A DNA stretch of 64,000 nt from an uncultured Clostridia bacterium. GTDB lineage: Bacteria; Acidobacteriota; Aminicenantia; UBA2199. The position numbers were made by a program, and so were the translations under genes. Below are positions 292 to 22,018 of this stretch, piece by piece. The notes beneath the pieces are model-generated. The model made no database searches and was not told where the DNA came from. It saw only the letters and a program-made list of their open reading frames with translations. The stretch lies in the NCBI GenBank assembly GCA_964465065.1, contig CAYXHZ010000006.1, positions 1,185 to 65,184 on the forward strand, written 5' to 3'. The number at the start of each line of letters is the position of its first letter. Position 1 is the first letter of the stretch.

Positions 292-759
292 TCAATGCTC
301 CTTATTTTTACTTTTGGTGGCCATTTTCAAACCCAAAAATATCAGAATCAAAGGCCATAGATCGACGATGTCGCTCAGATCCAGATCCCATACGTCCAGG
401 TTGCCAAGCTGCAGCACGATGCCGGCGACGATCAGAACCAGGGCCAGTCCCAGTGACGGCAGGGCGGAAGCGGGCTCGACGGCTGACTCCAGGGCGGAAG
501 CGGGCTGTGCCGCAAAGTCCCTGGCATCCTGGTAGGCGTCGAAAATCTGAAAGAAATAAAAGGCCGACATCAGCAGGGCGATGATGACGTGATGCTCCGC
601 CCGATCGGCATGCACCTGGGCGACGATCAGGGTGGCCATCAAGGCCATGTAGCTGAGCGCCTTGAGGGGATTGCGCAGGTAAAAGTGACCGGTGCCCATC
701 ACGATCGCCGACAGACTCGCCGCCAGCAGGGGATTTTTTCGGACAGTCGTTTCAGCCAT
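292..759 (-). CDS. Membrane protein with a C-terminal LiaF-TM-like motif (DLSDIVDLWPLILIFLGLK) and an internal short repeat (ASALESAVEPASALPS)
   Basis: 155-aa ORF with an N-terminal TM region and the same C-terminal motif as the 60..290 protein. It overlaps the anti-sigma stop by 8 nt, suggesting translational coupling. Confidence 0.5.
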   Translation of the reverse strand: MAETTVRKNPLLAASLSAIVMGTGHFYLRNPLKALSYMALMATLIVAQVHADRAEHHVIIALLMSAFYFFQIFDAYQDARDFAAQPASALESAVEPASALPSLGLALVLIVAGIVLQLGNLDVWDLDLSDIVDLWPLILIFLGLKMATKSKNKEH

Positions 760-1255
760 TGTTCGTTCGCTCCTCCAGGCTGCCGGCAGGCGGCCGGGAT
801 TCGTTGCCGATGAAGGAAATCGGCATCGTTCTGACTTCCTGATCTTTCTGGAAACGGAAGAACAGGGCCTCGGTCTCGACGGCGATGCGTTCGATCCCTG
901 AAACCAGACCGTGCAGAGTGCGGTTGGCCTGGGGGAAGATATTGGTGAAATAGAAGAGGTTGAAAAACAGGATCATGGTGGCGATCATAGCCGCCGCCCA
1001 CTTCATGTACAGAGCCGGGTGTTCGTCCTCTTCGACGCTGTAGGCTTCCGGGATGTAATAGAGGCGGTTGCGCAGGAAAAACGGTACCTCCTCCTCGAGT
1101 TGGGAGCTGCCGGACAGAATCGAGACCAGATCTTCGTGCAGACAGCGGCACTGCGGACAAAGCTCGATGTGCGCGGCCATCTGGCGACCCGTGTTGTCGT
1201 CGAGCGTACCTTCGATATAATCGGACAGCAGTTCTTCGAAGCTACTGCATTCCAT
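752..1255 (-). CDS. Anti-sigma factor, zinc-finger (ZAS-type HxxxCxxC: AAHIELCPQCRC) with one TM segment
   Basis: The ORF in the track starts at 1348, but the internal ATG at 1255 (MECSSFEELLSDYIEGTLDD...) gives a typical ZAS N-terminus. It overlaps the ECF sigma stop by 14 nt. The hydrophobic stretch AAMIATMILFFNLFYF is the TM helix. Confidence 0.65.
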   Translation of the reverse strand: MECSSFEELLSDYIEGTLDDNTGRQMAAHIELCPQCRCLHEDLVSILSGSSQLEEEVPFFLRNRLYYIPEAYSVEEDEHPALYMKWAAAMIATMILFFNLFYFTNIFPQANRTLHGLVSGIERIAVETEALFFRFQKDQEVRTMPISFIGNESRPPAGSLEERTNNG

Positions 1256-1793
1256 GGCTACCTCCCTGCTGGCGGTAGAGCTGCGCCAGCCGGATGCGCG
1301 CCCGGTTGATCCGGGACTTGACCGTGCCGATGGGCAGGTCCAGGACATCGGATATCTCCTGATAGGATTTATCCTGGATATCCCTCATGATCAACAGCAG
1401 CCGCAAGTCCGGATTGATCCGGTTGATCAGGCCGCGGATGAAGACCGCCTCGTTGCTCCGGGTGGAGCAGTCTTCCGGACTGTCGTGGTCGACGGCCATG
1501 TTCTCTTCCAGTTCGCTCTGGTTGCGGCTGCGCTTGGTCTTGCGCCAGTAATCGATGCAGGTGTTGCGGGCCAGACGCATCAGCCAGGCGCCGAAATTGT
1601 ACTCGTCCTGGTACTTGTCGAGCTGGGTGTAGAGTTTGAGAAAGATATCCTGGGTGATGTCGGCCGCCTCGTCACCGGAGCCGCTGAAGTTGAGGGCTAT
1701 GTTGTAAACGCTCTTCGAGTAGCGATTGATCAGCATGTTCCAAGCCTCTTGCTGCCCGGTTTTAATCCGGGCTATCAGTTCGGTGATTTCCAT
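1242..1793 (-). CDS. ECF (sigma-70 family, RpoE/sigmaW-like) RNA polymerase sigma factor
   Basis: 183 aa. Region 2 (ITQDIFLKLYTQLDKY...FGAWLMRLARN) and region 4 (SYQEISDVLDLPIGTVKSRINRARIRL) motifs are present. It is immediately followed by the ZAS anti-sigma gene. Confidence 0.85.
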   Translation of the reverse strand: MEITELIARIKTGQQEAWNMLINRYSKSVYNIALNFSGSGDEAADITQDIFLKLYTQLDKYQDEYNFGAWLMRLARNTCIDYWRKTKRSRNQSELEENMAVDHDSPEDCSTRSNEAVFIRGLINRINPDLRLLLIMRDIQDKSYQEISDVLDLPIGTVKSRINRARIRLAQLYRQQGGSHGMQ

Positions 1794-1802
1794 TCTGTTT
1801 TG

Positions 1803-1831
1803 ATAAACGTCCCGGGGAACCGAAAAGTTCC
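1803..1831 (-). promoter_or_regulatory. Candidate autoregulatory ECF-type promoter GGAAC-N17-CGTTTA upstream of the ECF sigma gene
   Basis: Minus-strand reading: tGGAACttttcggttccccgggaCGTTTAtcaaaacagaATG. The GGAAC sits inside a palindrome (GGAAC-N6-GTTCC). The -10 would lie close to the ATG, implying a short or leaderless transcript. Confidence 0.3.
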
Positions 1832-10300: not shown

Positions 10301-11128
10301 TTATCGTTTGGCGCTCCGACTTGCCAACAAAATGAACGCCGGCGTCAATCCCAGAACGGCGGTGAAGATCCACAGAGGCAGCATGGTCCAGGCATCGGCC
10401 AGTCGGGCTTTCAGGGCAAACGGCGTGTATGCGATCAAGATGAAGCTGTAAAACCCGCACACCAGACCCATCACGACTCCCAGGACATAGCCCCGCCCCT
10501 CCCCTTTCAAAAGCCAGACTGCCGCCAGGACCTGAGGAACCGCCAGCACCAGCAGATCGAAGGTGGATATCACCGCCACCCCCTCCATATCCAGGGTTCC
10601 GGTCATGAGAAACTGTACCCAGCGCCCGCCCCACAGAAACACGAAGACCAGCGCGAAGGCCAGCAGCATGGCGGCCACCGTGATCGCGCTGCGTTTTCCG
10701 GGGATGTGTTTCCGGTACTTTTTGAGATTCATGCCCAGCATTGCGAATATGAAAGAATACATGGAGACGCCCAGAATCAGGACGTACAGGAGAAAGTAGT
10801 CGTTGTACGCCACGCCCAGCGGGTAATAAATATAATCATAGGTGATCAGCGCCTGAACGCCCAGCCAGAAAACCTGGCCCTTATCCGTACCGCGCCGCAG
10901 CATAACGAGCGCGACGATCAGCAGCGGAACGAAAAGGAACAGGTTTACCAGGTCGTTGCCCCGGAAAACCGCTCGGCCCCAGGTGTTGTCACGGGCGTAG
11001 GTACCGGGCACAAACATTCCGACCGCCGCCTGCACGGTCATCGCCAGCAGGCTGATCTGTGAAAGAATCATCGGCGTCCGCAGCGACTTTTCCGGAGTTT
11101 TTTCGTCGATAAAATCTCGTTTTGTCAT
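10301..11128 (-). CDS. Polytopic inner-membrane protein, function unknown
   Basis: Start chosen at MTKRDFIDEK... (ATG at 11128) with a GGAGG-like SD. About 7 predicted TM helices and no recognisable catalytic motif. Confidence 0.5.
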   Translation of the reverse strand: MTKRDFIDEKTPEKSLRTPMILSQISLLAMTVQAAVGMFVPGTYARDNTWGRAVFRGNDLVNLFLFVPLLIVALVMLRRGTDKGQVFWLGVQALITYDYIYYPLGVAYNDYFLLYVLILGVSMYSFIFAMLGMNLKKYRKHIPGKRSAITVAAMLLAFALVFVFLWGGRWVQFLMTGTLDMEGVAVISTFDLLVLAVPQVLAAVWLLKGEGRGYVLGVVMGLVCGFYSFILIAYTPFALKARLADAWTMLPLWIFTAVLGLTPAFILLASRSAKR

Positions 11129-11284
11129 CCTGGCACCTCCCTTCTCGGACGATCTGTCACTGTTTATAGGACGATGGACAATAATATGCAAGAGGCAGTC
11201 CCGGTTTTTGGGAATGGTGATGGTTATCATGTGTACAGGCGCAGGCAGGCGTCCCCTATGCACCCTGGATCATGGAGATAATCA

Positions 11285-11427
11285 ATGAAAACAATCCGTA
11301 TGCGTTTCCTTTTTCTGACGATGGCGGTTTGGATCCTTCCTGTTCTTGCCGACGAGTTCCGCTACGTCATCAACACCCGCGACCACGGGGATCACATGGC
11401 CGGCAACGAGCTGGCGCCGAGCAGGTG
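11285..11427 (+). pseudogene. Short ORF resembling a degenerate MBL-fold (glyoxalase-II-like THHHxDHxGGN) hydrolase fragment
   Basis: Translation: MKTIRMRFLFLTMAVWILPVLADEFRYVINTRDHGDHMAGNELAPSR*. The VINT-RDHGDH-MAGNEL segment resembles the LLNTHHHADHTGGNLEL Zn-binding block with His->Arg/Asp substitutions. It lies in an AT-rich intergenic stretch. Confidence 0.25.
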
Positions 11428-11626
11428 ATTGCCGCCGATCTGCGAACAGGGTCGTGATGGTGGCAAAGACCGCGGGTGGTGAAATCCCGTCTGAATGAAC
11501 CGGCAAAGAATGAGTAAAAGTACTCAAAGAGGCGTTCGTTTTCTTTGAATCCGCATGGGTATAACCACAAGGCAATAATTCAAAAAACACCGATAATAAA
11601 AGATATACAGTCTCTTCATGTTTGAA

Positions 11627-11666
11627 ATTACAATGTAAAACCCGTGACACTGTTCTGTATTGCAAT
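11627..11666. repeat. Imperfect inverted repeat (ATTaCAATgtAaAACC-N8-tGTTCTGTATTGCAAT), a degenerate copy of the perfect palindrome at 35461..35500
   Basis: The right arm tgttctgtattgcaat shares a 15-mer with the 35.48 kb element; the left arm matches its reverse complement at about 11 of 16 positions. It lies roughly 75 bp upstream of the 11744 start codon. Confidence 0.4.
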
Positions 11667-11743
11667 ATGACGCCGAAAAAAAAGGAGATTTGTTCTAGGC
11701 TGTGAAGGCGAGGGCGGATCAAAGCCTCAAACAGGAGAACAAA

Positions 11744-14371
11744 ATGAGTAAAAGAAATAGGATTGTCGGGATGCTGATTCTGATGCTCGGGCTGACAGGA
11801 ACCGTCCGGGCTGTTGAAAAAGCCCCAATCCGGGCCGAACGGCTCCAGGATCCAGTAACCGTCGATGGACGGCTCGAGGAGTCGTCCTGGCAGCGACAGG
11901 GTTACTGCGAGTTCTGGCAGCGGGAGCCGGACGAAGGCAAACCGGCCAGCGAAAGGAGCGAGGTGTGGCTGGCCTACGATGATGATGCCCTCTATGTGGC
12001 CGCCCGCTTGAGCGATTCTCAGCCCGAACTCGTGTCCGGGCTGCTGGGGCGGCGAGATACGGAATTAGACTGCGACTGGTTCACCGTCTATCTCGATCCC
12101 TATCTGGACAAACTCAGCGGCTTTGCCTTCGGCATCACTCCGGCGGGATCGGTCAGCGATCGCGCCTTGTATAACGATGTCGGATGGAACAGTCTATGGG
12201 ATGGCATCTGGAACGGCAAGGCCCAGCGGGACCGCCAGGGCTGGACGGTGGAGATGCGCATTCCCTTCAACCAGCTCCGCTTTTCCAAAAAGGATGGGGA
12301 ATATCGCTGGGGAGTTCATTTCCGGCGCATCGTCATGCGCAAGAATGAAGTGTCCGATTCGGCGCCCATACCCCGGACCGGCAATAACATGGTATCCCTG
12401 TTCAAGGAAATGGTGGGCATCGAAGGCATCGCCCCGCGACCGTTGATCATGGTCAGTCCCTACCTGGTGGGAAAAGGGGAATTCCTCGCCGGAGAGGTGG
12501 ATCAGGCGACGGGGAATCTGGGGCTGGACGCCAAGATCGGCCTTCGGAGCAACCTGACTCTCGACCTGTGTGTCAACCCCGATTTCGGCCAGGTGGAGGT
12601 GGATCCGGCCAGCATCAACCTCAGCGCCGCCGAGACCTACTATCAGGAAAGACGTCCCTTCTTCATAGAGGGTGCGGATCTGTTTACCAATTTCAGCTTC
12701 TGTGGTGGGAATCACCCCAGTGCTGGCTGGAACAACCCCCGATTCTTCTACAGCCGTCGCATCGGCCGACCACCGCAGGGTTCCGTTTCTCAGTCCGGTC
12801 AGATCGATATGCCGGAATGGGCGACGATTCTGAGCGCGGCCAAACTGACCGGCACCCTGGGGAACGGATGGAAGATCGGGGCCATCTACGGACTGACCGA
12901 GCGGGAGTTCGCCGCAGTCGATGATCTGGGCCAGGAGTTCGAGGTGGAGGTCGAGCCGCTGACCCATTACGCCGTACTGCGCACCCAGAAGGAATTCAAC
13001 CAGGGGCGGCAGGGTCTGGGCTTCCTGGGCACCCTGGTGGCCCGGGATTTTGCGGATGATTCCCTGCGAGGGGCTCTCAATTCCGATTCCTGGATGGTGG
13101 GGTTCGATGGCTGGGCGTTCTTCGGTCCGCAGAAGAATTGGGTTTTGAGTGGATGGTTCAGTTCCAGCCGGGTCAACGGTTCGGCCCAGCGCATCACCTC
13201 CTTGCAGCAAGAATTCCCCCATTACTACCAACGTCCCGACATGAGTCATGTGAACCTGGATACTGGTTTGACCCATTTGGATGGCTGGGTCGGCAGAATT
13301 GAAGTCAACAAGGAAAAAGGGAATTTAAGATTCAATGCGGGACTGGGTGCCGTGTCTCCGGGTTACGATATCCGGGACGGCGGGTATCATACGAGCGCGG
13401 ATGTCATCAACGGGCATGTGCTGGTCGGGTGGCAGGATTTTACTGTGGGGAAGGTGATACGCAAATGGAACATCGATCTGTGGCATCAGCGCAACTACAA
13501 TTTCGCCGGGGACAAGATCGGCGAACAGCGTGTCATTGTCGCGGCCAATGCCCAATTCCTGAACTACTGGTCCTGCAATTTTATGACCAGTTACAATCCC
13601 GGTCATTTTTCCCAGACCGCGACCCGAGGCGGACCGTTGATGAAGATACCATCCTATCAATGGTATAATTTTACCATCAGCAGCGACAGCCGCAAACGGC
13701 TGGTCGGCTCCCTGTCCGGTTATGTGAACCAGAGCAGCAACGGGTCATCGGAAAACACTTTCTCCCTGTCTCTCAGTCTGAAACCCAGCAGCCGGTTCAG
13801 TCTGTCCATCAGCCCGGCTTACAGCTCTATCAATGAACGGGCCCAATACGTGACCCAGGTCAATGATCCGACGATGACGGCCACCTACGGCAAGCGGTAC
13901 GTTTTCTCTGCTTTGGATTTGAAGGAACTCTCCTGTTCCATGCGCATCAACTGGATCTTCACGCCCCAGCTCAGTCTGCAGGGATATATCCAGCCTTTTC
14001 TTTCGGTGGGTCATTACCGGGATTTCGCCGAACTGGCTGAGCCGTCGAGCGATCGATTCAGGCCATTCGGACACGATGGCTCCACCATCGAAGCGGAAAA
14101 CGGGTCGTTTGGGGTCGATCCCGACGGCAGCGGGCCGGCCGCTCCTTTCCGGTTCAACAATCCCGATTTCAACCTCAAATCGCTGCGAGGCACTCTGGTC
14201 CTGCGCTGGGAGTACCTTCCGGGATCGAGCCTGTATTTCGTCTGGACGCAGAATCGGGCCGACTATGCCAACCCCGGCGATTTCCGTTTCGGCCGTGACC
14301 TGGGCGATCTGTTCTCCGCCCGGGGAGACAATGTCTTCATGGTAAAACTGACCCACGGTTTCAATCTGTAG
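11744..14371 (+). CDS. Large exported DUF5916 / CBM9-like (family-9 carbohydrate-binding-like) domain protein
   Basis: ATG at 11744 with an AGGAG SD 7 nt upstream. Signal peptide MSKRNRIVGMLILMLGLTGTVRA. The N-terminal region (..WLAYDDDALYVAARL..DWFTVYLDPY..) is typical of DUF5916/CBM9-like proteins, and the C-terminal 600 aa is beta-rich. Confidence 0.6.
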   Translation: MSKRNRIVGMLILMLGLTGTVRAVEKAPIRAERLQDPVTVDGRLEESSWQRQGYCEFWQREPDEGKPASERSEVWLAYDDDALYVAARLSDSQPELVSGLLGRRDTELDCDWFTVYLDPYLDKLSGFAFGITPAGSVSDRALYNDVGWNSLWDGIWNGKAQRDRQGWTVEMRIPFNQLRFSKKDGEYRWGVHFRRIVMRKNEVSDSAPIPRTGNNMVSLFKEMVGIEGIAPRPLIMVSPYLVGKGEFLAGEVDQATGNLGLDAKIGLRSNLTLDLCVNPDFGQVEVDPASINLSAAETYYQERRPFFIEGADLFTNFSFCGGNHPSAGWNNPRFFYSRRIGRPPQGSVSQSGQIDMPEWATILSAAKLTGTLGNGWKIGAIYGLTEREFAAVDDLGQEFEVEVEPLTHYAVLRTQKEFNQGRQGLGFLGTLVARDFADDSLRGALNSDSWMVGFDGWAFFGPQKNWVLSGWFSSSRVNGSAQRITSLQQEFPHYYQRPDMSHVNLDTGLTHLDGWVGRIEVNKEKGNLRFNAGLGAVSPGYDIRDGGYHTSADVINGHVLVGWQDFTVGKVIRKWNIDLWHQRNYNFAGDKIGEQRVIVAANAQFLNYWSCNFMTSYNPGHFSQTATRGGPLMKIPSYQWYNFTISSDSRKRLVGSLSGYVNQSSNGSSENTFSLSLSLKPSSRFSLSISPAYSSINERAQYVTQVNDPTMTATYGKRYVFSALDLKELSCSMRINWIFTPQLSLQGYIQPFLSVGHYRDFAELAEPSSDRFRPFGHDGSTIEAENGSFGVDPDGSGPAAPFRFNNPDFNLKSLRGTLVLRWEYLPGSSLYFVWTQNRADYANPGDFRFGRDLGDLFSARGDNVFMVKLTHGFNL

Positions 14372-14400
14372 GGGACGAAAACCTTGACGGCAGCGGACAC

Positions 14401-14790
14401 ATGGCCGATTTCTTCAAACAGCTCAACGGTCAGGACGGGAGTTATTAGCGTCAGAGCCATGGCGGACGGGGCTATGTCTTTCAGGATCGCTACAAATCAT
14501 ACCTGATCCAGGATGAGGCCTACCTGATGCTCTGCCTGGCCTATGTGCTCAACAACCCGGTCAAGGCCGGAATATGCAAGGGATTCGAGAACTATCGCTG
14601 GTCCAGTGCCCAGTCCTACTTTTCAGATGAACCCCCAGAATGGCTGGACACGACGTTTATCGAAGAACTCTTCGGAGATGCCGATGCTTTGATGCGCTTC
14701 GTGGATGCGCAGGCCGAACTGGATCCGTTCGCCGATCTCAGCGTCAACAGCCTGGGGGTCATGTACCATCGGGCCCGCCGGAAAGGGTAA
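14401..14790 (+). pseudogene. 3' remnant of an IS200/IS605-family HUH (RayT / REP-associated tyrosine transposase-like) transposase, with an in-frame TAG
   Basis: Frame-1 translation: MADFFKQLNGQDGSY*RQSHGGRGYVFQDRYKSYLIQDEAYLMLCLAYVLNNPVKAGICKGFENYRWSS.... This matches the C-terminal third of Y1/RayT transposases (..WQ.RY....I.......YI..NPV.AGLV....YPWSS). The HUH-containing N-terminal half is absent because the DUF5916 stop abuts it at 14371. Confidence 0.65.
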
Positions 14791-14823
14791 CGGTGGGCGA
14801 CAATGTAAAGAAGTACAGCACTG

Positions 14824-15468
14824 TCACCCCCGCCTCCGTGTTCGCCACATGTAGACAGACACCAGAATGCCGATTACGGGGTAGGTAATACCAACCGTTG
14901 AACTGATCAAGAAGAGAGGCTGAATAATCAGGGCGGCAAACACAAAAGGCGCCGCGCAACCATGGATCAGCATCATGATTCTGATCGTTTTTATAATCCC
15001 GCGGCCTTTGATGGCCAAGGCCATGAACAATGTCGAAAGGCCCATCAAGGTATACGCCAGGCCATTGACAGCATAAAAAGGTTTACCTGCCGCCATTTCA
15101 AAGATCGAAACGCTTTGAAAGGTATTGTTTAAAAAAGAGGGGGCAATTATCATCACCTGTACAACATACACGACTGAATTCAAGGTGGCGTAAATGACGG
15201 CCAACGCCACTGCGAACGAGAACAATATTTTCACTTTGTTTATTTCATCGCGATAGAGAGACAAGGTCATTCCCAGGAATGAATAGGCCAACAGCAGCGA
15301 TGGTCCGTACCATGAAAGCGAAATCCAGAACTGCGATTCCATGACTCCTGTCAATCCCAAAACCGCTGCGACATCAAACATGATGTAAAAAAGAGATGAT
15401 AAAATCGCCGTGATAAAGCCGAACATTTTTGCAGTGCGGAATTCCTGATCTGAAAACATGTCACTCAT
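14824..15468 (-). CDS. Polytopic membrane protein encoded in a low-GC islet, function unknown
   Basis: 214 aa with about 6 TM helices. The local GC is clearly lower than the flanks (AT-rich codons, many Ile/Phe/Lys/Asn). Confidence 0.55.
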   Translation of the reverse strand: MSDMFSDQEFRTAKMFGFITAILSSLFYIMFDVAAVLGLTGVMESQFWISLSWYGPSLLLAYSFLGMTLSLYRDEINKVKILFSFAVALAVIYATLNSVVYVVQVMIIAPSFLNNTFQSVSIFEMAAGKPFYAVNGLAYTLMGLSTLFMALAIKGRGIIKTIRIMMLIHGCAAPFVFAALIIQPLFLISSTVGITYPVIGILVSVYMWRTRRRG

Positions 15469-15760
15469 TCGCTCCTCCTTTTGAGTGTTCCAAATGTCTT
15501 CAATGCGCTGTTAGGCCAGAAATGTTTCATTTTATACGGTCTGATCGAAAAAAGTTTGTTTTAATTCCCAATATAGCCATGATGATAAAGAAAGACACCG
15601 TGATTAAACCACAGATCATACATATCACGCCATCGGAACATATACGGAGACGAGCGTTCAATGTTCCAGACAGGTAATCCGATACGCTGATTGTTATAGG
15701 ACAGTGAAAACAATAAAGCAAGAAGATGACTCGGCAATTCGTCCGGTCGCGGCAGAAATT

Positions 15761-16414
15761 TCAGTAGTAGATCGTCACCCGGAAGGAACCGGAATTGTCG
15801 CCGAAGTCGAAATCGTTGATGCCGATGAACAGGCGCCCGGCACGGCTCATGCGGATCGGCGCCCGGTTGTTGCCCACGTAGAACGGCGGACCATCCTCGG
15901 CCACCCGGGCGATGACGGCCCCGGTCGGCTGTGTCGGCATGGTCTTGTCCTTGTGCCAGTTGAGATTGAGCTCACCGTCCTGGAAAACCGAATTCTTGTC
16001 GTCGATGAAGATCGATCCGCTGCAGGAGAACATGATCTCCTGGCCGGTCTGCACCGTCAGACCGGTGTCGATCCATTGTTGACCGGCCTGGAGATCGACG
16101 CTGAGCGACCGTTTTTTTCGGCGCAGTTTCTGATACTTCTGCTCCACATCGTAGGCGGATTGAATGATTTGCGGGGCTGCCGAGGTGAACTCGATCTTCC
16201 ATACCTTGCCGATCGGTATCCTCAATGTATGACTTTCCGCCTGCCCCTGTTTGAAGACATTGAAAAAAATCGTCTCGTAGCGCAGATCGACCATCTTGCC
16301 GATATACTGAGTGCCATCGGTCGTATACAGGACATGATGCTCGGCAACCAGCGCCCGGGGCCAAGCCCAGATCAAGCCCAAAAACAAACCCAGCCAAGCC
16401 AGCCGTTTACTCAT
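15761..16414 (-). CDS. Secreted protein with a C-terminal PA-IL (LecA)-like lectin domain
   Basis: Start at MSKRLAWLGLFLGLIWAWPRALVA (signal peptide). The C-terminus ..GAVIARVAEDGPPFYVGNN..RLFIGINDFDFGDNSGSFRVTIYY resembles P. aeruginosa LecA (..[38 protein letters not shown]). Start overlaps the stop of the DapF-like gene by 8 nt. Confidence 0.5.
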   Translation of the reverse strand: MSKRLAWLGLFLGLIWAWPRALVAEHHVLYTTDGTQYIGKMVDLRYETIFFNVFKQGQAESHTLRIPIGKVWKIEFTSAAPQIIQSAYDVEQKYQKLRRKKRSLSVDLQAGQQWIDTGLTVQTGQEIMFSCSGSIFIDDKNSVFQDGELNLNWHKDKTMPTQPTGAVIARVAEDGPPFYVGNNRAPIRMSRAGRLFIGINDFDFGDNSGSFRVTIYY

Positions 16415-17243
16415 CGCCAGACTCCAGATATTCTCCCTTATAAACGATCCGGGTACGGTTTTCAATAAAGATGCGGTCGCAACCGGATATTTTTATTTTT
16501 TCCCCGCTCGGCGGCAAGAAAACCAGCTCGCTCAAACCTGGTTCGAGAGCCCGGAGCACCGCGTAGGCGCCGGCCGTTCCGGTGGACGAGGACAGGGTCG
16601 CTCCGACGCCGCGCTCGTAAAAGCGGATGCCGACCCCGTCGTCGCCCCGGTCGGTGATGATCGACACGTTGGTGCGCTGCGGAAAGATCGGTTGGCGGTG
16701 CAGTTCTTCGGCCAAGGCCAGCGCCTCGGCCGTCGATTGTCCGGCTGCCTGAAAGAAAACGACCTGCGGGTTGCCGACGGCGACCGGGTAGAAACGGAGG
16801 GAACGGTGATAAAACCCGTCACGCCAGCGCCGCTGCGGGTCGGCATTGAGAAAAGGGAAAAATCGGCTGTCGGCGAAATCCGGAAGCCCCAGATCGATCC
16901 GCAGACGGTAGCCGTTGTCCCGGCTGTCCAGCAGGCGGTGGCGATAGAGGTCGCGAATCCCGGCCAGCTCGATGGTATCGCCGTTCGCACCCAGATGGCA
17001 CAAGAGCGCGCTCAGACCGGCCATACCGTTGCCGGACAGTTCGGCCTCCAGGCCATCCTGGTTGAAAATGCGGAAAGAAACCGGCCGAACGGACCGGTCG
17101 TAAACGACCAGCCCGTCCGCGCCCGCACCGTAGTGACGGTCGCACCAGCGCCGCACCTGCGTCGGCGAAGGTGGCCCGCTCAGCTCGGCGGCATCGACCT
17201 GTAAAAAGTCGTTACCGCCGCTGCAGCTCTTGTAAAAAACCAT
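16407..17243 (-). CDS. Diaminopimelate-epimerase (DapF) family protein with both catalytic cysteines replaced (Cys73->Ser, second Cys absent)
   Basis: MVFYKSCSGGNDFLQVD (GNDF motif). FRIFNQDGLEAELSGNGMAG aligns to E. coli YRIFNADGSEVAQC73GNGARC. FYERGVGATLSSSTGTAGAYAV aligns to [21 protein letters not shown] with no Cys at all. ATG at 17243 overlaps the degP TGA (TGATG). Confidence 0.7.
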   Translation of the reverse strand: MVFYKSCSGGNDFLQVDAAELSGPPSPTQVRRWCDRHYGAGADGLVVYDRSVRPVSFRIFNQDGLEAELSGNGMAGLSALLCHLGANGDTIELAGIRDLYRHRLLDSRDNGYRLRIDLGLPDFADSRFFPFLNADPQRRWRDGFYHRSLRFYPVAVGNPQVVFFQAAGQSTAEALALAEELHRQPIFPQRTNVSIITDRGDDGVGIRFYERGVGATLSSSTGTAGAYAVLRALEPGLSELVFLPPSGEKIKISGCDRIFIENRTRIVYKGEYLESGDE

Positions 17244-18712
17244 CACTCTTCGGGAATGGTGAACGGAATGACCTGCTCGTTGCCCTGGCGGTTGATGTAG
17301 AGGTAAACGCCGTCACCCGGTGAACGCCGGCCCATGAGCTCGCGGAACTGTTTGACCGATCTCAGTTCGGTCCGGCCGACGGCGATGATGACGTCGTTGG
17401 GCCGCAAACCCTGCTGATGCGCCGCACCGCCGCGCACCACCTGGTCGACGACGACGCCCTCGTCGGTCTTGAGCTTGCGGCGCGAGGCCTCGGCGGCGTT
17501 GTTGTCCACCAGCACCATGCCCAGATCGATGAGCCCGCCGTCTTCCCCTTCGGCCTGGATGGTCTCCGATTCCGGAGCCTCGCCGACGATGACCGTGAAC
17601 GAGATGGGCTTGCCGTCACGCACAACGCCGACCGCCAGCTTTTCTCCCGGTTTGAGTTCGGCCACTTTGATGCTCAGCAGGCGGGATTCCTTGATCGGTT
17701 CTCCGCCCAGCGAAGTGATCAGATCGAGCTTCTTGAGGCCCGCCTTCTCGGCCGGTGAACCTTTCTCGACCGAGCGGATCAGGATACCGGGCTGACCGAT
17801 ATCGAACTTCTTGGCTCTTTCCTCGTCCATTTCCTCGATTTCCACACCCAGCCAACCGCGGATGACGCGGCCGCCCTTCTTGAGGTCCGCCACGACCCGT
17901 CTGGCCAGATTGGAGGTGATGGCGAAACCCAGGCCGATGCTGCCGCCGCTGTTGGAAACGATGACCGAGTTGATACCGATGACCTGGCCCTGCATGTTGA
18001 TCAGCGGACCGCCGGAATTGCCCTGGTTGATGGCGGCGTCGGTCTGGATGAAATCCTGGTACTGCAGACCGGACTGACGCAGCCCTTCCATGTAACGGCC
18101 CTTGGCGGAAATGATGCCGCTGGTGACGGTCAGATCCTGGTAGAGAGGGTTGCCGATGGCCAGAACCCATTCCCCGACCTCGGCCTTGTCGGCGTCGCCC
18201 ATTTCCAGGTAGGGGTGATCGCCACCCTCGATCTTGAGCAGGGCCAGATCGGTCTTGGAATCCTCGCCGATCTTCTTGGCCTTGTATTTCTTCTTGTCGA
18301 TGGTCTCGATGGTGATGCTGATGGCGTCCTTGACCACGTGATGATTGGTAATGATGTAGCCGTCGGCGGAAATGAAGAAGCCCGAACCCAAACCTTCGAC
18401 GGGTTGACGTCGCTGCGGCTGCATGTTGAAGAAGCGGTCGAAGATGTCATCGCCGAAAGGGGACTGGCTCCTTTCGGAAATGATCTGCGTCGACACCTTG
18501 ACCACGGCCGGCCGCACTTTGCGTACGATCGGGGCGAAGCCCATACCCTGGGCCGGATTGTTGTCGGTGGCCGCCAGGACCGGAGTCGCTGTCAATCCCA
18601 AAACCTCGGCGGGAGGATTATCCGTCGCATCCCGGTTCAGAAAACCCGTGAAGGCCAGAGTGGACAGGCCGACCAGGAATCCCAGCAAACTGGCTAAAAC
18701 AACTTTTTTCAT
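17243..18712 (-). CDS. degP: Periplasmic serine endoprotease DegP/HtrA (trypsin-like domain plus two PDZ domains)
   Basis: Signal peptide MKKVVLASLLGFLVGLSTLA. Catalytic motifs NHHVV, DLALLK and GNSGGPLINMQGQVIGINS. Two PDZ-like C-terminal regions. AGGAGG SD 6 nt upstream of the ATG at 18712. Confidence 0.9.
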   Translation of the reverse strand: MKKVVLASLLGFLVGLSTLAFTGFLNRDATDNPPAEVLGLTATPVLAATDNNPAQGMGFAPIVRKVRPAVVKVSTQIISERSQSPFGDDIFDRFFNMQPQRRQPVEGLGSGFFISADGYIITNHHVVKDAISITIETIDKKKYKAKKIGEDSKTDLALLKIEGGDHPYLEMGDADKAEVGEWVLAIGNPLYQDLTVTSGIISAKGRYMEGLRQSGLQYQDFIQTDAAINQGNSGGPLINMQGQVIGINSVIVSNSGGSIGLGFAITSNLARRVVADLKKGGRVIRGWLGVEIEEMDEERAKKFDIGQPGILIRSVEKGSPAEKAGLKKLDLITSLGGEPIKESRLLSIKVAELKPGEKLAVGVVRDGKPISFTVIVGEAPESETIQAEGEDGGLIDLGMVLVDNNAAEASRRKLKTDEGVVVDQVVRGGAAHQQGLRPNDVIIAVGRTELRSVKQFRELMGRRSPGDGVYLYINRQGNEQVIPFTIPEE

Positions 18713-18760
18713 GTGCATCCTCCTTTGTATAGATAGTCTATCGGTATTCGATTACTATCA

Positions 18761-18790
18761 GACGCTCTGTCAACCCATCGGGTTTCACGA
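18761..18790 (-). promoter_or_regulatory. ECF (sigmaW/sigmaE-type) promoter candidate tGAAAC-N17-CGTCTGA upstream of degP
   Basis: Minus-strand reading: gtGAAACccgatgggttgacagagCGTCTGAtag, about 45 nt upstream of the degP ATG. Compare B. subtilis sigmaW TGAAAC-N16-CGTA and E. coli sigmaE -10 TCTGA. Confidence 0.4.
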
Positions 18791-19000: not shown

Positions 19001-20227
19001 ATGGGCATGAACATACCTACTGGCAGCGTCTCGACCCTCAGCCTTCGTATCGACAATCGTTGCCGGCTGTCCGGCGACAGCCAGTCCCCCAGAACGGACA
19101 GAAAAGGCAAACCGGCCCAGGCCGACAACGATTTCGAACAGGCGATCAGTACGCAGAACCTTCCCGAGCCCCAGCCCCCGAAAGAGCAGGAAACCGAAAC
19201 ATCCGGAACCGAAACGCAAACCAGACCCGCCGACAGTCCGGCCAGTGCCGACGACACGGCGGCGGCCGATTTGCCAGCCTCTCAGGAACTTCAGGGCGAA
19301 ACGGCCGACTCCGATCCGGCCAGAGCGCAGGAACAAACCCGGACCGATGCCCCGGCCCAGATCCAGACCGAACTGCGCTTGCCGCAACCCCAGTTTATCC
19401 AGCAAACGGCAGCGATCGCCTTCGACAGCGCCCTGGTCGATCTCTCGGCAGACGCAGGACCGCAGACCGCCAAGCCGGTGCCGGAGCAGGCGCCTGCCAC
19501 GTCCCGGACCGATCCGGCCGCCAGCAAGGTCATCCAGACCAATATTCCCGCGCAGACCGAGCCAAGCCCCTTGCCCTGGACAGACGGCGAACAGAACGAA
19601 GGCGCCGGCACTGCGACAGTCTCCGAACCGGTTTTACCCAAAAAAATTCCCGAAAAGGGACTGCCAACCGGACTCGGCCACAGCCAGCCGGAGAACGGCC
19701 TGACGCCGCCAACCGGCGTTCCGTCCGGTGAGGCAGCGGTCAATACGGCCCAGATCAGCCAGGCGACGCCGGTCTGGCAGAACAGCCCGGTCAACCCCGC
19801 CGACATCATCGACCAGGTCCGGGTGCAGATCCTGCAGGGCAGCAAGTCGGGTGAAAAAAAGATCACCATGCAATTGCAACCCCCGGAACTCGGCAAGATG
19901 AGCATCGAACTGTCCCTGAGCGACAAACAGATCGAGGCCCGCATCTACACCGAACATCAGGTGGTCCGCGAGGTGGTACTGTCACAGATCGAGCAGCTGC
20001 GCTCGCAACTGGCCCAGGAAGGTTGGAATCTCAACAAGGTCGATGTCAACATCGGCACCTTTCGCGAACAGCAGGACCAGACGGCCCAGGCTGCACTGCA
20101 ATCGCTCAGAGCCGGCTACCGTGGCGGCGCGGCCGCCGGTCGGGACGGGCAAACGGAAAGCGCCGATACCGCTCAGCGGGTCTGGCAACCACCGGGATTG
20201 GGCAGAAGGGTGAACCTGATCGTCTGA
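19001..20227 (+). CDS. Protein with a FliK (flagellar hook-length control) C-terminal Flg_hook-like domain and a Pro/Gln/Thr/Ala-rich low-complexity N-terminus
   Basis: The C-terminus ADIIDQVRVQILQGSKSGEKKITMQLQPPELGKMSIELSLSDKQIEARIYTEHQVVREVVLSQIEQLRSQLAQEGWNLNKVDVNIG matches the FliK C-terminal domain. No other flagellar genes are nearby. The start codon is uncertain. Confidence 0.55.
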   Translation: MGMNIPTGSVSTLSLRIDNRCRLSGDSQSPRTDRKGKPAQADNDFEQAISTQNLPEPQPPKEQETETSGTETQTRPADSPASADDTAAADLPASQELQGETADSDPARAQEQTRTDAPAQIQTELRLPQPQFIQQTAAIAFDSALVDLSADAGPQTAKPVPEQAPATSRTDPAASKVIQTNIPAQTEPSPLPWTDGEQNEGAGTATVSEPVLPKKIPEKGLPTGLGHSQPENGLTPPTGVPSGEAAVNTAQISQATPVWQNSPVNPADIIDQVRVQILQGSKSGEKKITMQLQPPELGKMSIELSLSDKQIEARIYTEHQVVREVVLSQIEQLRSQLAQEGWNLNKVDVNIGTFREQQDQTAQAALQSLRAGYRGGAAAGRDGQTESADTAQRVWQPPGLGRRVNLIV

Positions 20228-20389: not shown

Positions 20390-22018
20390 ATGTCAATGTT
20401 TTGTTTTCAATGTCAGGAGACGGCACGCAACACGGGCTGCACCGTCAAGGGAGTATGCGGCAAGAAGGAAGAGACCGCCCTGCTTCAGGACCTGCTGATC
20501 TATACCTGCAAGGGTATCGCCATGGCCGCCAGCCATCAATACGATCAGGCCGCCGGCCGTTTCATCATCAGCGCCCTGTTTTCCACCATCACCAACGCCA
20601 ATTTCGACGATGACCGCCTGCAGGCCCTGATTCAGGAAGGGCTGGGCATCCGCAGACAGCTGGTCAACAGCTGCGGTCAGAAATGCTGCTCGGGTCCCGA
20701 CTGCCACGACGCCCTGAGCTGGGAAGGCCGCAGCCTCGAGGATCTGCTGGCCAAGGCCCGGACCGTGGGCGTCATGTCCTGCCCGGATCCCGACATCCGT
20801 TCTCTGCGGGAACTGGTCGTCTACGGCCTGAAAGGCATCGCAGCTTACGCCTCGCACGCCGAACACCTGGGCTACGAGGACGACGAGATCTACCGGTTCA
20901 TGTTCAAGGCCCTGCCGGCCACCCTGAAACTGAGCGACGCGGAAAGCCTCAAGGCCCTGGTTCTGGAAACCGGGAAATTCGCCGTACAGACCATGGCCCT
21001 GCTCGACCGGGCCAACACGGAAAAATACGGTCACCCGGAAATCACCCAGGTCAACATCGGTGTCGGTACCCGACCGGGCATCCTGATCTCCGGACATGAC
21101 CTGCACGACATGGAAATGCTGCTGAAGCAGACGGAAGGCAAGGGTGTCGACGTCTACACCCACAGCGAGATGCTGCCGGCCAATTACTACCCGGCCTTCA
21201 AGAAACACAAACACTTCGTGGGCAACTACGGCAACGCCTGGTGGAAACAGGCTGAGGAATTCGAAAAATTCAACGGCGCCATCCTCATGACCACCAACTG
21301 CATCATCCCGGTCCGGGAATCATATCTGGGACGCATCTTCACCACCGGTATGGCCGGTTACCCCGGAGTCCGTCACATCCAGGCCGGCAAAGACGGCCGA
21401 AAAGACTTTTCGGCAGTCATCGAGACGGCCCTGGCCTGTCCTCCGCCGCAACAGATCGAGGAAGGCTCCATCGTAGGCGGCTTTGCCCACAACCAAGTGC
21501 TGGCTCTGGCCGACAAGGTGGTGGCCGCCGTCAAGAGCGGCGCCATCAAACGCTTTGTGGTCATGGCCGGCTGCGACGGCCGCCACACCAGCCGGCAGTA
21601 CTTCAGCGACGTGGCCCAGACCCTGCCCAAGGACACCGTCATCCTGACCGCCGGTTGCGCAAAGTACCGCTACAACAAACTGAAATTGGGCGATATCGGC
21701 GGCATTCCCCGGGTTCTGGACGCCGGACAGTGCAACGACTCCTATTCGCTGGCTCTCATCGCACTCAAGTTGAAAGAGGTGTTCGGATTGGCCAGCATCA
21801 ACGATCTGCCCCTGTCCTTCGATATCGCCTGGTACGAACAGAAAGCGGTGGCCGTGCTGCTGGCCCTGCTCTACCTGGGAGTGAAAGGCATCCGCCTCGG
21901 CCCTACCCTGCCCGGATTTTTGTCCCCCAACGTGGCGAAGGTGCTGGTGGAACTGTTCGATATCAAGGCGATCGGCCAAGCCGGCGACGATGTCGCCCGG
22001 ATGATGTCCGGTCACTGA
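20390..22018 (+). CDS. hcp: Hydroxylamine reductase / hybrid-cluster protein Hcp
   Basis: [36 protein letters not shown] is the classic Hcp N-terminal Cys cluster. 542 aa. AAGGAGG SD 7 nt upstream. Confidence 0.95.

Follow-up and report, generated by a model that had tools for sequence, protein, structure and literature searches.

Textbooks present the cofactor-independent amino-acid racemases and epimerases as two-thiol enzymes, and the exchange of cysteine for serine is a routine means of inactivating them. The closest described relatives of the three proteins considered here are diaminopimelate epimerase (DapF), the HtrA-family protease gene degP/htrA of Escherichia coli, which depends on sigmaE, and the PA-IL lectins LecA (Pseudomonas aeruginosa), PllA (Photorhabdus) and EclA (Enterobacter). 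Proteins related to all three in sequence or fold are encoded by one minus-strand operon in a 64,000-nt stretch of an uncultured Aminicenantia bacterium (Acidobacteriota; assembly GCA_964465065.1, contig CAYXHZ010000006.1, positions 1,185 to 65,184), which is referred to as the window. The DapF homolog carries serine at both positions of the catalytic cysteines. On balance, we favor the reading that this is a conserved envelope-maintenance operon driven by an extracytoplasmic function (ECF) sigma factor, and that its middle gene encodes the thiol-free DapF that this lineage uses, probably still acting on diaminopimelate (DAP). The elements of the operon are as follows, with ORF3 denoting the third open reading frame.

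18761..18786, minus strand: ECF-sigma-type promoter motif GAAAC-N17-CGTC (context gTGAAACcc...gCGTCTGA), 49–74 nt upstream of the likely htrA start
18719..18725, minus strand: ribosome-binding site AAGGAGG, abutting the first htrA ATG (18718) and 6 nt before the second ATG (18712)
17243..18712, minus strand: htrA/degP-family periplasmic serine protease gene (TIGR02037, Pfam, motif reading)
16407..17243, minus strand: gene of the DapF-family protein with the Ser70/Ser219 dyad (TIGR00652, PDB alignments, AlphaFold2 model)
17034..17036, minus strand: Ser70 codon TCC, aligned with Cys73 of Haemophilus influenzae DapF
16587..16589, minus strand: Ser219 codon TCG, aligned with Cys217 of H. influenzae DapF
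15761..16414, minus strand: ORF3, exported two-domain protein of 217 aa (signal peptide, AlphaFold2 model, Foldseek, profile)
15764..16108, minus strand: predicted β-sandwich of PA-IL (LecA/PllA/EclA) fold, residues ~103–217 of ORF3 (Foldseek, profile-to-PDB alignment)

The product of the middle gene scored 119.3 bits on the TIGR00652 DapF model, only just above the cut-off of 114.65, and matched Pfam DAP_epimerase (PF01678) at 9e-20. In alignments to solved DapF structures, its ELSGNG stood opposite E[MQ]CGNG and its TLSSSTG opposite TLACGTG. An earlier note, made from the sequence alone, had claimed a DapF homolog without the catalytic cysteines, and this was borne out: both positions were serine in the PDB alignments, and serine occupied both dyad positions, within AELSGNGM and SSTGSA, in 120 of the 120 best homologs. 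Selenocysteine or other recoding at the dyad was rejected, the codons being ordinary TCC and TCG. The protein has no signal peptide. Its AlphaFold2 model (mean predicted local distance difference test, pLDDT, 92.9) places each serine directly before a central helix, and the closest PDB structures to the model were true DapFs (E 3e-22, template modeling (TM) score 0.76–0.81).

Compared with the DapFs of H. influenzae, E. coli and cyanobacteria (PDB 1gqz, 4ijz, 9mro), the window protein thus has the same full-length match and two-domain fold (TM about 0.8), and its serines, like the cysteines of DapF, lie at the N-terminal ends of the two central helices. It also retains, in the alignment to solved DapFs, all residues binding both ends of DAP, which we take to be N11, N64, G74, N75, N157, N190, E208, R209 and S/T219 in H. 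influenzae numbering. It differs in having serine for both catalytic cysteines, in the loss of the arginine of the GNGxRC motif, in replaced second-shell methionines and in the location of its gene, which in this lineage lies in an htrA operon and not in a DAP or miaA-hflX context.

The Ser/Ser state was not confined to the window lineage. A HMMER search covered 1.84 billion cluster representatives (50% identity), among which 23 matches at E ≤ 1e-30 made up the Aminicenantes-type family, and the dyad states counted in the best 150 representatives were 81 Ser/Ser, 60 Cys/Cys and 5 Ser/Cys. Ser/Ser DapFs also occurred in Gaiellaceae/Thermoleophilia, Longimicrobiales and Gemmatimonadales, among the matches listed from a scan of species-representative genomes. 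The nearest Cys/Cys representatives came from Myxococcota and Atribacteria and none from Aminicenantes, with few members carrying taxon names. Over 8000 soil-metagenome sequences were close relatives of the Gaiellaceae-type Ser/Ser DapF, and every one carried the annotation of an ordinary diaminopimelate epimerase; the closest homologs of the Gaiellales protein were Gaiellaceae metagenome sequences of at least 85% identity, with no cultured organism among the matches listed.

Residues N11, N61, G71, N72, N158, N192, E210, R211 and T221 (window numbering) were 96%–100% conserved in both Ser/Ser groups, as in Cys/Cys DapFs. In the alignment of the 150 representatives, the conserved methionines at positions 6, 57, 69 and 260 of Cys/Cys DapFs were replaced by Phe, Leu, Ile or Thr in the Ser/Ser proteins, and Val208 by Phe or Ile. 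As judged from these alignments, the replacements are a coordinated second-shell change accompanying the loss of the thiols, and the Ser/Ser dyad is an invariant and widespread state rather than a decayed site. The DapFs of Acidimicrobiia were Cys/Ser hybrids (AEMCGNG ... ET[MP][AS]SGTGA) encoded in a miaB-miaA-dapF slot (L041:9995-10756 and L057:10001-10762), and such Cys/Ser forms, together with the Ser/Cys forms, could be evolutionary intermediates between Cys/Cys and Ser/Ser.

The genomic position of Ser/Ser DapFs outside the Aminicenantes points to an ordinary housekeeping role. In an uncultured actinomycete metagenome-assembled genome (MAG) whose DapF clusters with Gaiellaceae (locus L082, 7010-13265), the gene order was miaB, miaA, dapF(Ser/Ser), an aminotransferase gene and hflX, and the aminotransferase scored 518 bits on the LL-diaminopimelate aminotransferase model NF006756 (cut-off 507). 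Among the 45 non-Aminicenantes Ser/Ser loci listed (within the range L032-L086), 42 had a MiaA gene upstream and 36 an HflX gene downstream, and in about 20 of the 45 an aminotransferase at least 65% identical to that of L082 directly followed dapF. The dapF-aminotransferase pair was found with Cys/Cys DapFs as well, in four Firmicutes loci. The order miaA-dapF-hflX is what we take to be the classical actinobacterial position of dapF (Rv2727c-2726c-2725c in Mycobacterium tuberculosis). Because of this slot, the Gaiellales Ser/Ser DapF would, at least in that phylum, be the positional ortholog of the housekeeping enzyme, beside the enzyme that makes LL-DAP.

In the window lineage, the gene has a different setting. 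Related loci were collected by contig look-ups and the species-representative genome scan and searched with tblastn/phmmer on the fetched loci; the counts refer to the matches listed, and the loci are phylogenetically connected, so that they do not count independent events. About 30 Aminicenantes/Acidobacteriota loci encoded DapF homologs 36%–63% identical to that of the window. Among the loci retained from the scan of species-representative genomes, the nearest DapF was 42% identical (matches listed). The end of the HtrA gene met the start of the DapF gene in a stop/start overlap in ~27 of the 30, and the lectin-like gene then followed in ~20. It was absent in a subclade comprising L017, L018, L022-L024 and L026-L029. 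HtrA was reduced to a 167-aa PDZ-only fragment in L003 (9402-9905; a 9.1-Mb Aminicenantes genome) and missing from L014 and L019, and in L019 (1-1985) an AmiC-like amidase gene overlapped the start of the Ser/Ser dapF. A peptidoglycan amidase of this type (AMIN+Amidase_3) and a Yip1 protein were often encoded upstream in the related loci. The triad was thus clearly syntenic in relatives, as the earlier note required for its proposal to stand.

DapF(Ser/Ser) was therefore the sole constant gene of the Aminicenantes-type loci, in which HtrA or ORF3 can be missing, a constancy more in keeping with a housekeeping enzyme than with an accessory sensor. A second DapF gene was found neither in the 64-kb window nor within 10 kb in the ~30 related loci listed. 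In locus L092 (4497-6864), a distant Ser/Ser type (EAETSGNGL ... ASGSGSS, 39% identical) directly followed an HtrA gene near a class A penicillin-binding protein gene, and the htrA-dapF(Ser/Ser) pairing would therefore be older than the Aminicenantes-type clade.

ECF promoters combine an AAC −35 block with a CGT −10 block, as in the sigmaE and sigmaW consensus. The motif GAAAC-N17-CGTC upstream of htrA was the sole exact match in the window, where 0.75 would be expected in 64 kb, and is not significant alone. Its significance comes from its conservation upstream of htrA in relatives: the same motif, with a spacer of always 17 nt, lay 26–146 nt upstream of htrA in 24 of the 27 related loci listed, against a background of 0.016 per locus (360 nt, same loci), and two further loci had a GCAAC variant there. 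Among 25 distinct sequences, only TGAAACtTT and gCGTCt were conserved, while the spacer and flanks were otherwise unalignable and ranged from AT-rich to GC-rich. A scan for sigma-70-type promoters between 15400 and 19100 found none. A TTGACA within the promoter spacer was considered as a sigma-70 −35 element and rejected, as it had no acceptable −10 element at 16–18 nt. By its architecture, the upstream motif would be an ECF-type promoter; the claim of such a promoter in the earlier note gained from the two blocks with fixed spacer in 25 distinct loci.

The arrangement resembles the sigmaE-dependent degP/htrA of E. coli and the sigmaW/sigmaM promoters of Bacillus subtilis (TGAAAC-N16-CGTA), according to their published consensus sequences, in that an HtrA-family protease gene stands behind AAC and CGT blocks ~17 nt apart. 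It differs from the sigmaE and sigmaW regulons in its dapF homolog and lectin-like gene, which are not among their known members. A candidate regulator is encoded in the window itself, 15 kb from the htrA operon.

1806-1831, minus strand: autopromoter-like site GGAAC-N17-CGTT, upstream of the ECF sigma factor gene
1242-1793, minus strand: ECF sigma factor (Sigma70_r2/r4; 32% identical to E. coli RpoE)
752-1348, minus strand: zf-HC2 anti-sigma factor
292-759, minus strand: LiaF-like membrane protein

The ECF sigma gene of locus L025 had the same GGAAC-N17-CGTT upstream. Because this autopromoter resembles the htrA motif without matching it exactly, the sigma factor of the window is put forward as a candidate only.

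The region contained three minus-strand open reading frames at 17243-18718 (491 aa), 16407-17246 (279 aa) and 15761-16465 (234 aa from TTG). When the junctions were re-read in the sequence, the gene overlaps of 1 and 8 nt described before were found as stated: the htrA stop codon TGA shares its A with the dapF ATG at 17243 (TGATG), and the ATG of ORF3 at 16414 gives an 8-nt overlap with the dapF TAA. An alternative dapF start, GTG at 17246, lies one codon upstream and would give a 4-nt overlap with htrA. Because of the placement of the ribosome-binding site and the MKK start of htrA relatives, which directly follows the same AGGAGG, translation of htrA probably begins at the second ATG (18712). 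The TTG at 16465 was rejected as the start of ORF3, since the related proteins have 210–218 aa and begin at the equivalent of the ATG. Cotranscription, also part of the earlier description, is likely, the stop/start overlaps being kept across relatives. Searches for intrinsic terminators gave chance-level matches only, and no Rfam family (e.g. a lysine riboswitch) matched in the whole window.

The first gene encodes an apparently intact protease. Its product scored 442.8 bits on the whole-protein hidden Markov model TIGR02037 (cut-off 416.2), contained the Pfam domains Trypsin_2 (residues 111–249), PDZ_2 and PDZ (two PDZ stretches) and, as read from the translation, had intact His, Asp and Ser motifs (TNHHV, DLALLK and GNSGGP). 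Its hydrophobic N-terminus is a signal or anchor sequence.

ORF3 had no match in Pfam (E ≤ 0.1, including PA-IL PF07828) or NCBIfam and only 26 word-sharing homologs, and a distant homolog, P0145, carries PF07828. Behind a signal peptide of about residues 1–24 (...ALVA/EHH), the AlphaFold2 model (pLDDT 80.7) consists of a small N-terminal β-barrel (~27–76), a helix (87–100) and a C-terminal β-sandwich modeled with pLDDT 85–96. A Foldseek search of the sandwich against the PDB returned PllA, LecA and EclA as the top 11 hits (E 1.5e-5, target TM 0.57–0.81, root-mean-square deviation 2.0–2.7 Å), and a profile of the ORF3 family aligned to the PDB chains of EclA (E 6e-6), PllA (4e-5) and LecA (0.17). 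The C-terminal 115 residues of ORF3 thus have the same β-sandwich as LecA, PllA and the N-domain of EclA, while the protein is only 18%–24% identical to the PA-IL lectins and has an extra N-terminal β-barrel and a signal peptide.

ORF3 shares with these lectins the C-terminal signature ND..[DN]NSG.F.V, which presumably marks the Ca2+/galactose loop in LecA. The loop IND-x4-DNxGxF, with invariant columns N200, D201, D206, N207, G209 and F211, corresponds to the lectin Ca2+/sugar loop ND....[DN]NSG.F and is two residues shorter. We take the Ca2+ loop of LecA to involve D100, T104, N107 and N108, to which the invariant D201, D206 and N207 of ORF3 would be equivalent. The signal peptide, Foldseek and profile results agree with the proposal of an exported PA-IL/LecA-like protein at the level of fold and motif, and ORF3 probably binds a glycan.

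On the favored reading, an ECF sigma factor would recognize TGAAAC-N17-CGTC and, presumably under envelope stress, transcribe the three translationally coupled genes. HtrA/DegP, with its intact triad and two PDZ domains, would serve periplasmic quality control. The cytoplasmic DapF(Ser/Ser) would bind LL- and meso-DAP and feed meso-DAP into peptidoglycan (and lysine) synthesis, with Ser/Ser acting as a thiol-free acid-base pair and not as a dead sensor, and the exported ORF3 would bind an envelope glycan via its PA-IL-type sandwich with the putative Ca2+ loop. More tentatively, and short of an even chance, Ser/Ser DapFs in general may be genuine thiol-free cofactor-independent epimerases, housekeeping in Aminicenantes-type Acidobacteriota, Gaiellales/Thermoleophilia and Gemmatimonadota, and wired to an ECF promoter in the window lineage.

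Several observations weigh against the favored reading. The C73S and C217S variants of H. influenzae DapF reportedly lose most of their activity. Structures of both variants exist (PDB 2q9h, 2q9j). The DapF-fold racemase HisR likewise loses most of its activity in the variants C67S and C209S (PMC11602996). No compensating acid/base or Ser-activating residue was found in the Ser/Ser groups, in which the second-shell changes were only hydrophobic or concerned methionine. Of the Ser/Ser groups, the Aminicenantes-type protein diverges most and barely passes the DapF model, and in a rough neighbor-joining tree its clade stood apart from that of the Gaiellales and Gemmatimonadota Ser/Ser proteins; because the tree separates the two, the Gaiellales context reaches the window protein by inference. 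None of the loci examined had a DAP-pathway gene next to the Aminicenantes-type dapF(Ser/Ser), and a Cys/Cys dapF or a meso-DAP dehydrogenase gene, neither of which was found in the 64-kb window, may lie elsewhere in these genomes. Finally, if an ECF promoter were the sole source of a housekeeping enzyme, its sigma factor would have to be active at a basal level.

An alternative that we consider rather unlikely is a dead DapF paralog that binds DAP or DAP-muropeptides and acts as a sensor-regulator in a stress module with HtrA and the lectin. It would account for the absence of both thiols, given that Cys-to-Ser mutants of the fold are poor catalysts (PMC11602996), and for the conserved pocket, which makes ligand binding likely. 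The tight coupling of the gene to htrA, the ECF promoter and a peptidoglycan amidase neighbor, and not to DAP-pathway genes, agrees with it, and E. coli DapF offers a parallel in its non-catalytic partner role with RppH (PMC6061791; PDB 6d13). However, a protein that merely binds its ligand would not be expected to keep serine so strictly at both positions, Ser/Ser DapFs of other lineages occupy the housekeeping dapF slot beside the LL-DAP-making enzyme, and DapF(Ser/Ser) persists where HtrA or ORF3 has been lost. Moreover, DapF is cytoplasmic whereas HtrA and ORF3 are exported, so that no direct physical module is evident.

The earlier note had gone in this direction by describing a DAP-binding DapF-like protein without epimerase chemistry. 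As stated, that claim is unsupported in view of the invariant dyad, the 96%–100% conserved pocket, the Gaiellales housekeeping slot and the constancy of the gene, and it was the weakest link of the note, resting on mutational precedent. The sensing or remodeling module that the note had suggested is a less likely reading than the favored one. Of the interpretation as a whole, the operon, the promoter, the loss of the cysteines, the lectin and the synteny stood, and the absence of epimerase chemistry did not.

A further possibility, to which we give a low probability, is that the protein performs altered chemistry on a DAP-like substrate, such as one-directional or slow epimerization, elimination/dehydration, or a reaction on a modified diamino acid. 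In the proline-racemase superfamily, the replacement of one cysteine turns an epimerase into a dehydratase, which provides a parallel. The HisR/CntK histidine racemases, the O-ureidoserine racemase DcsC, PhzF and the Cys/Thr 3-hydroxyproline dehydratases belong to a common fold superfamily with DapF and set a precedent that a change of pocket or catalytic pair alters function (PMC11602996), and PhzF, HisR, O-ureidoserine racemase and 3-hydroxyproline dehydratase were among the structural neighbors of the window protein. The natural Ser/Cys and Cys/Ser intermediates and the systematic second-shell shifts (Met 6, 57, 69 and 260; V208 to F/I) also fit this explanation. The enzymes of changed function, however, alter the pocket, or keep at least one cysteine or use Glu, whereas in the window DapF the pocket is unchanged, including the residues holding both ends of DAP, and both bases are serine. 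In the structure ranking, DapFs were by far the closest (E 1e-22; other subfamilies 1e-13 or weaker), followed by O-ureidoserine racemase, with PhzF, YddE, HisR and hydroxyproline epimerases far behind (E 1e-13 to 1e-11), and the Gaiellales context points to an ordinary pathway step.

The surroundings of the operon in the window include the following genes.

19001-20227, plus strand: FliK-like (Flg_hook) protein, its long N-terminal region rich in Pro/Gln/Thr/Ala, divergent from htrA
20390-22018, plus strand: hybrid-cluster protein Hcp
11702-14371, plus strand: DUF5916 protein of 889 aa, 1.4 kb beyond the operon

The closer relatives L001, L088 and L090 had the divergent FliK-like upstream neighbor as in the window, and L088 also had hcp. 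Other flagellar genes were found neither within 10 kb in the relatives nor among the window neighbors scanned. In L001 and L088, the operon was directly followed by a convergent truB-nrnA-DUF503-infB-nusA block, from which it is separated in the window (10301-15760) by an insert of ~4–5 kb holding the DUF5916 gene, an 87-aa reading frame (14527-14790) and a gene for a 214-aa membrane protein (14824-15468), the last two without Pfam match. Beside the Ser/Ser DapF gene of a Longimicrobiales genome, a DUF5916/CBM9-like protein is encoded as well (L067:6748-9444), possibly by coincidence.

It is very improbable that the locus has no functional meaning, with dapF behind htrA by descent, a motif that is no ECF promoter and an unrelated exported protein as third gene. 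In favor of this view, a single phylum-level lineage contributed most of the loci, which makes common descent part of the reason for their conservation, the nusA-infB-truB block beside the operon is likewise conserved, and the cognate sigma factor is still only a candidate whose autopromoter differs (GGAAC-N17-CGTT). Against it, the stop/start overlaps are kept at 36%–63% protein identity, the two motif blocks have been retained in intergenic regions that are otherwise scrambled and vary in GC content, and the htrA-dapF junction persists while the upstream neighbors vary (FliK-like, AmiC-like, Yip1).

Full-text searches of the literature found neither an account of naturally occurring Ser/Ser DapFs nor one of an operon joining htrA and dapF, and public annotations label the Ser/Ser proteins simply as diaminopimelate epimerase. 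The parts belong to known families. Apparently new are the Ser/Ser state as a class widespread in nature and its constant linkage with htrA downstream of a conserved ECF-type promoter. A conserved natural class of Ser/Ser DapFs with an intact pocket challenges the two-thiol view. Either serine pairs do this chemistry in a tuned site, which would give nature a second catalytic route to α-carbon inversion in the DapF fold, or the Gaiellaceae and Aminicenantes, which are abundant in soil and sediment, obtain meso-DAP in an unrecognized way. Either outcome would affect the annotation of dapF in thousands of MAGs and the standing of DapF as an antibiotic target. For a phylum-level lineage without genetics, the operon would provide a concrete ECF regulon core, consisting of the motif and the three genes.

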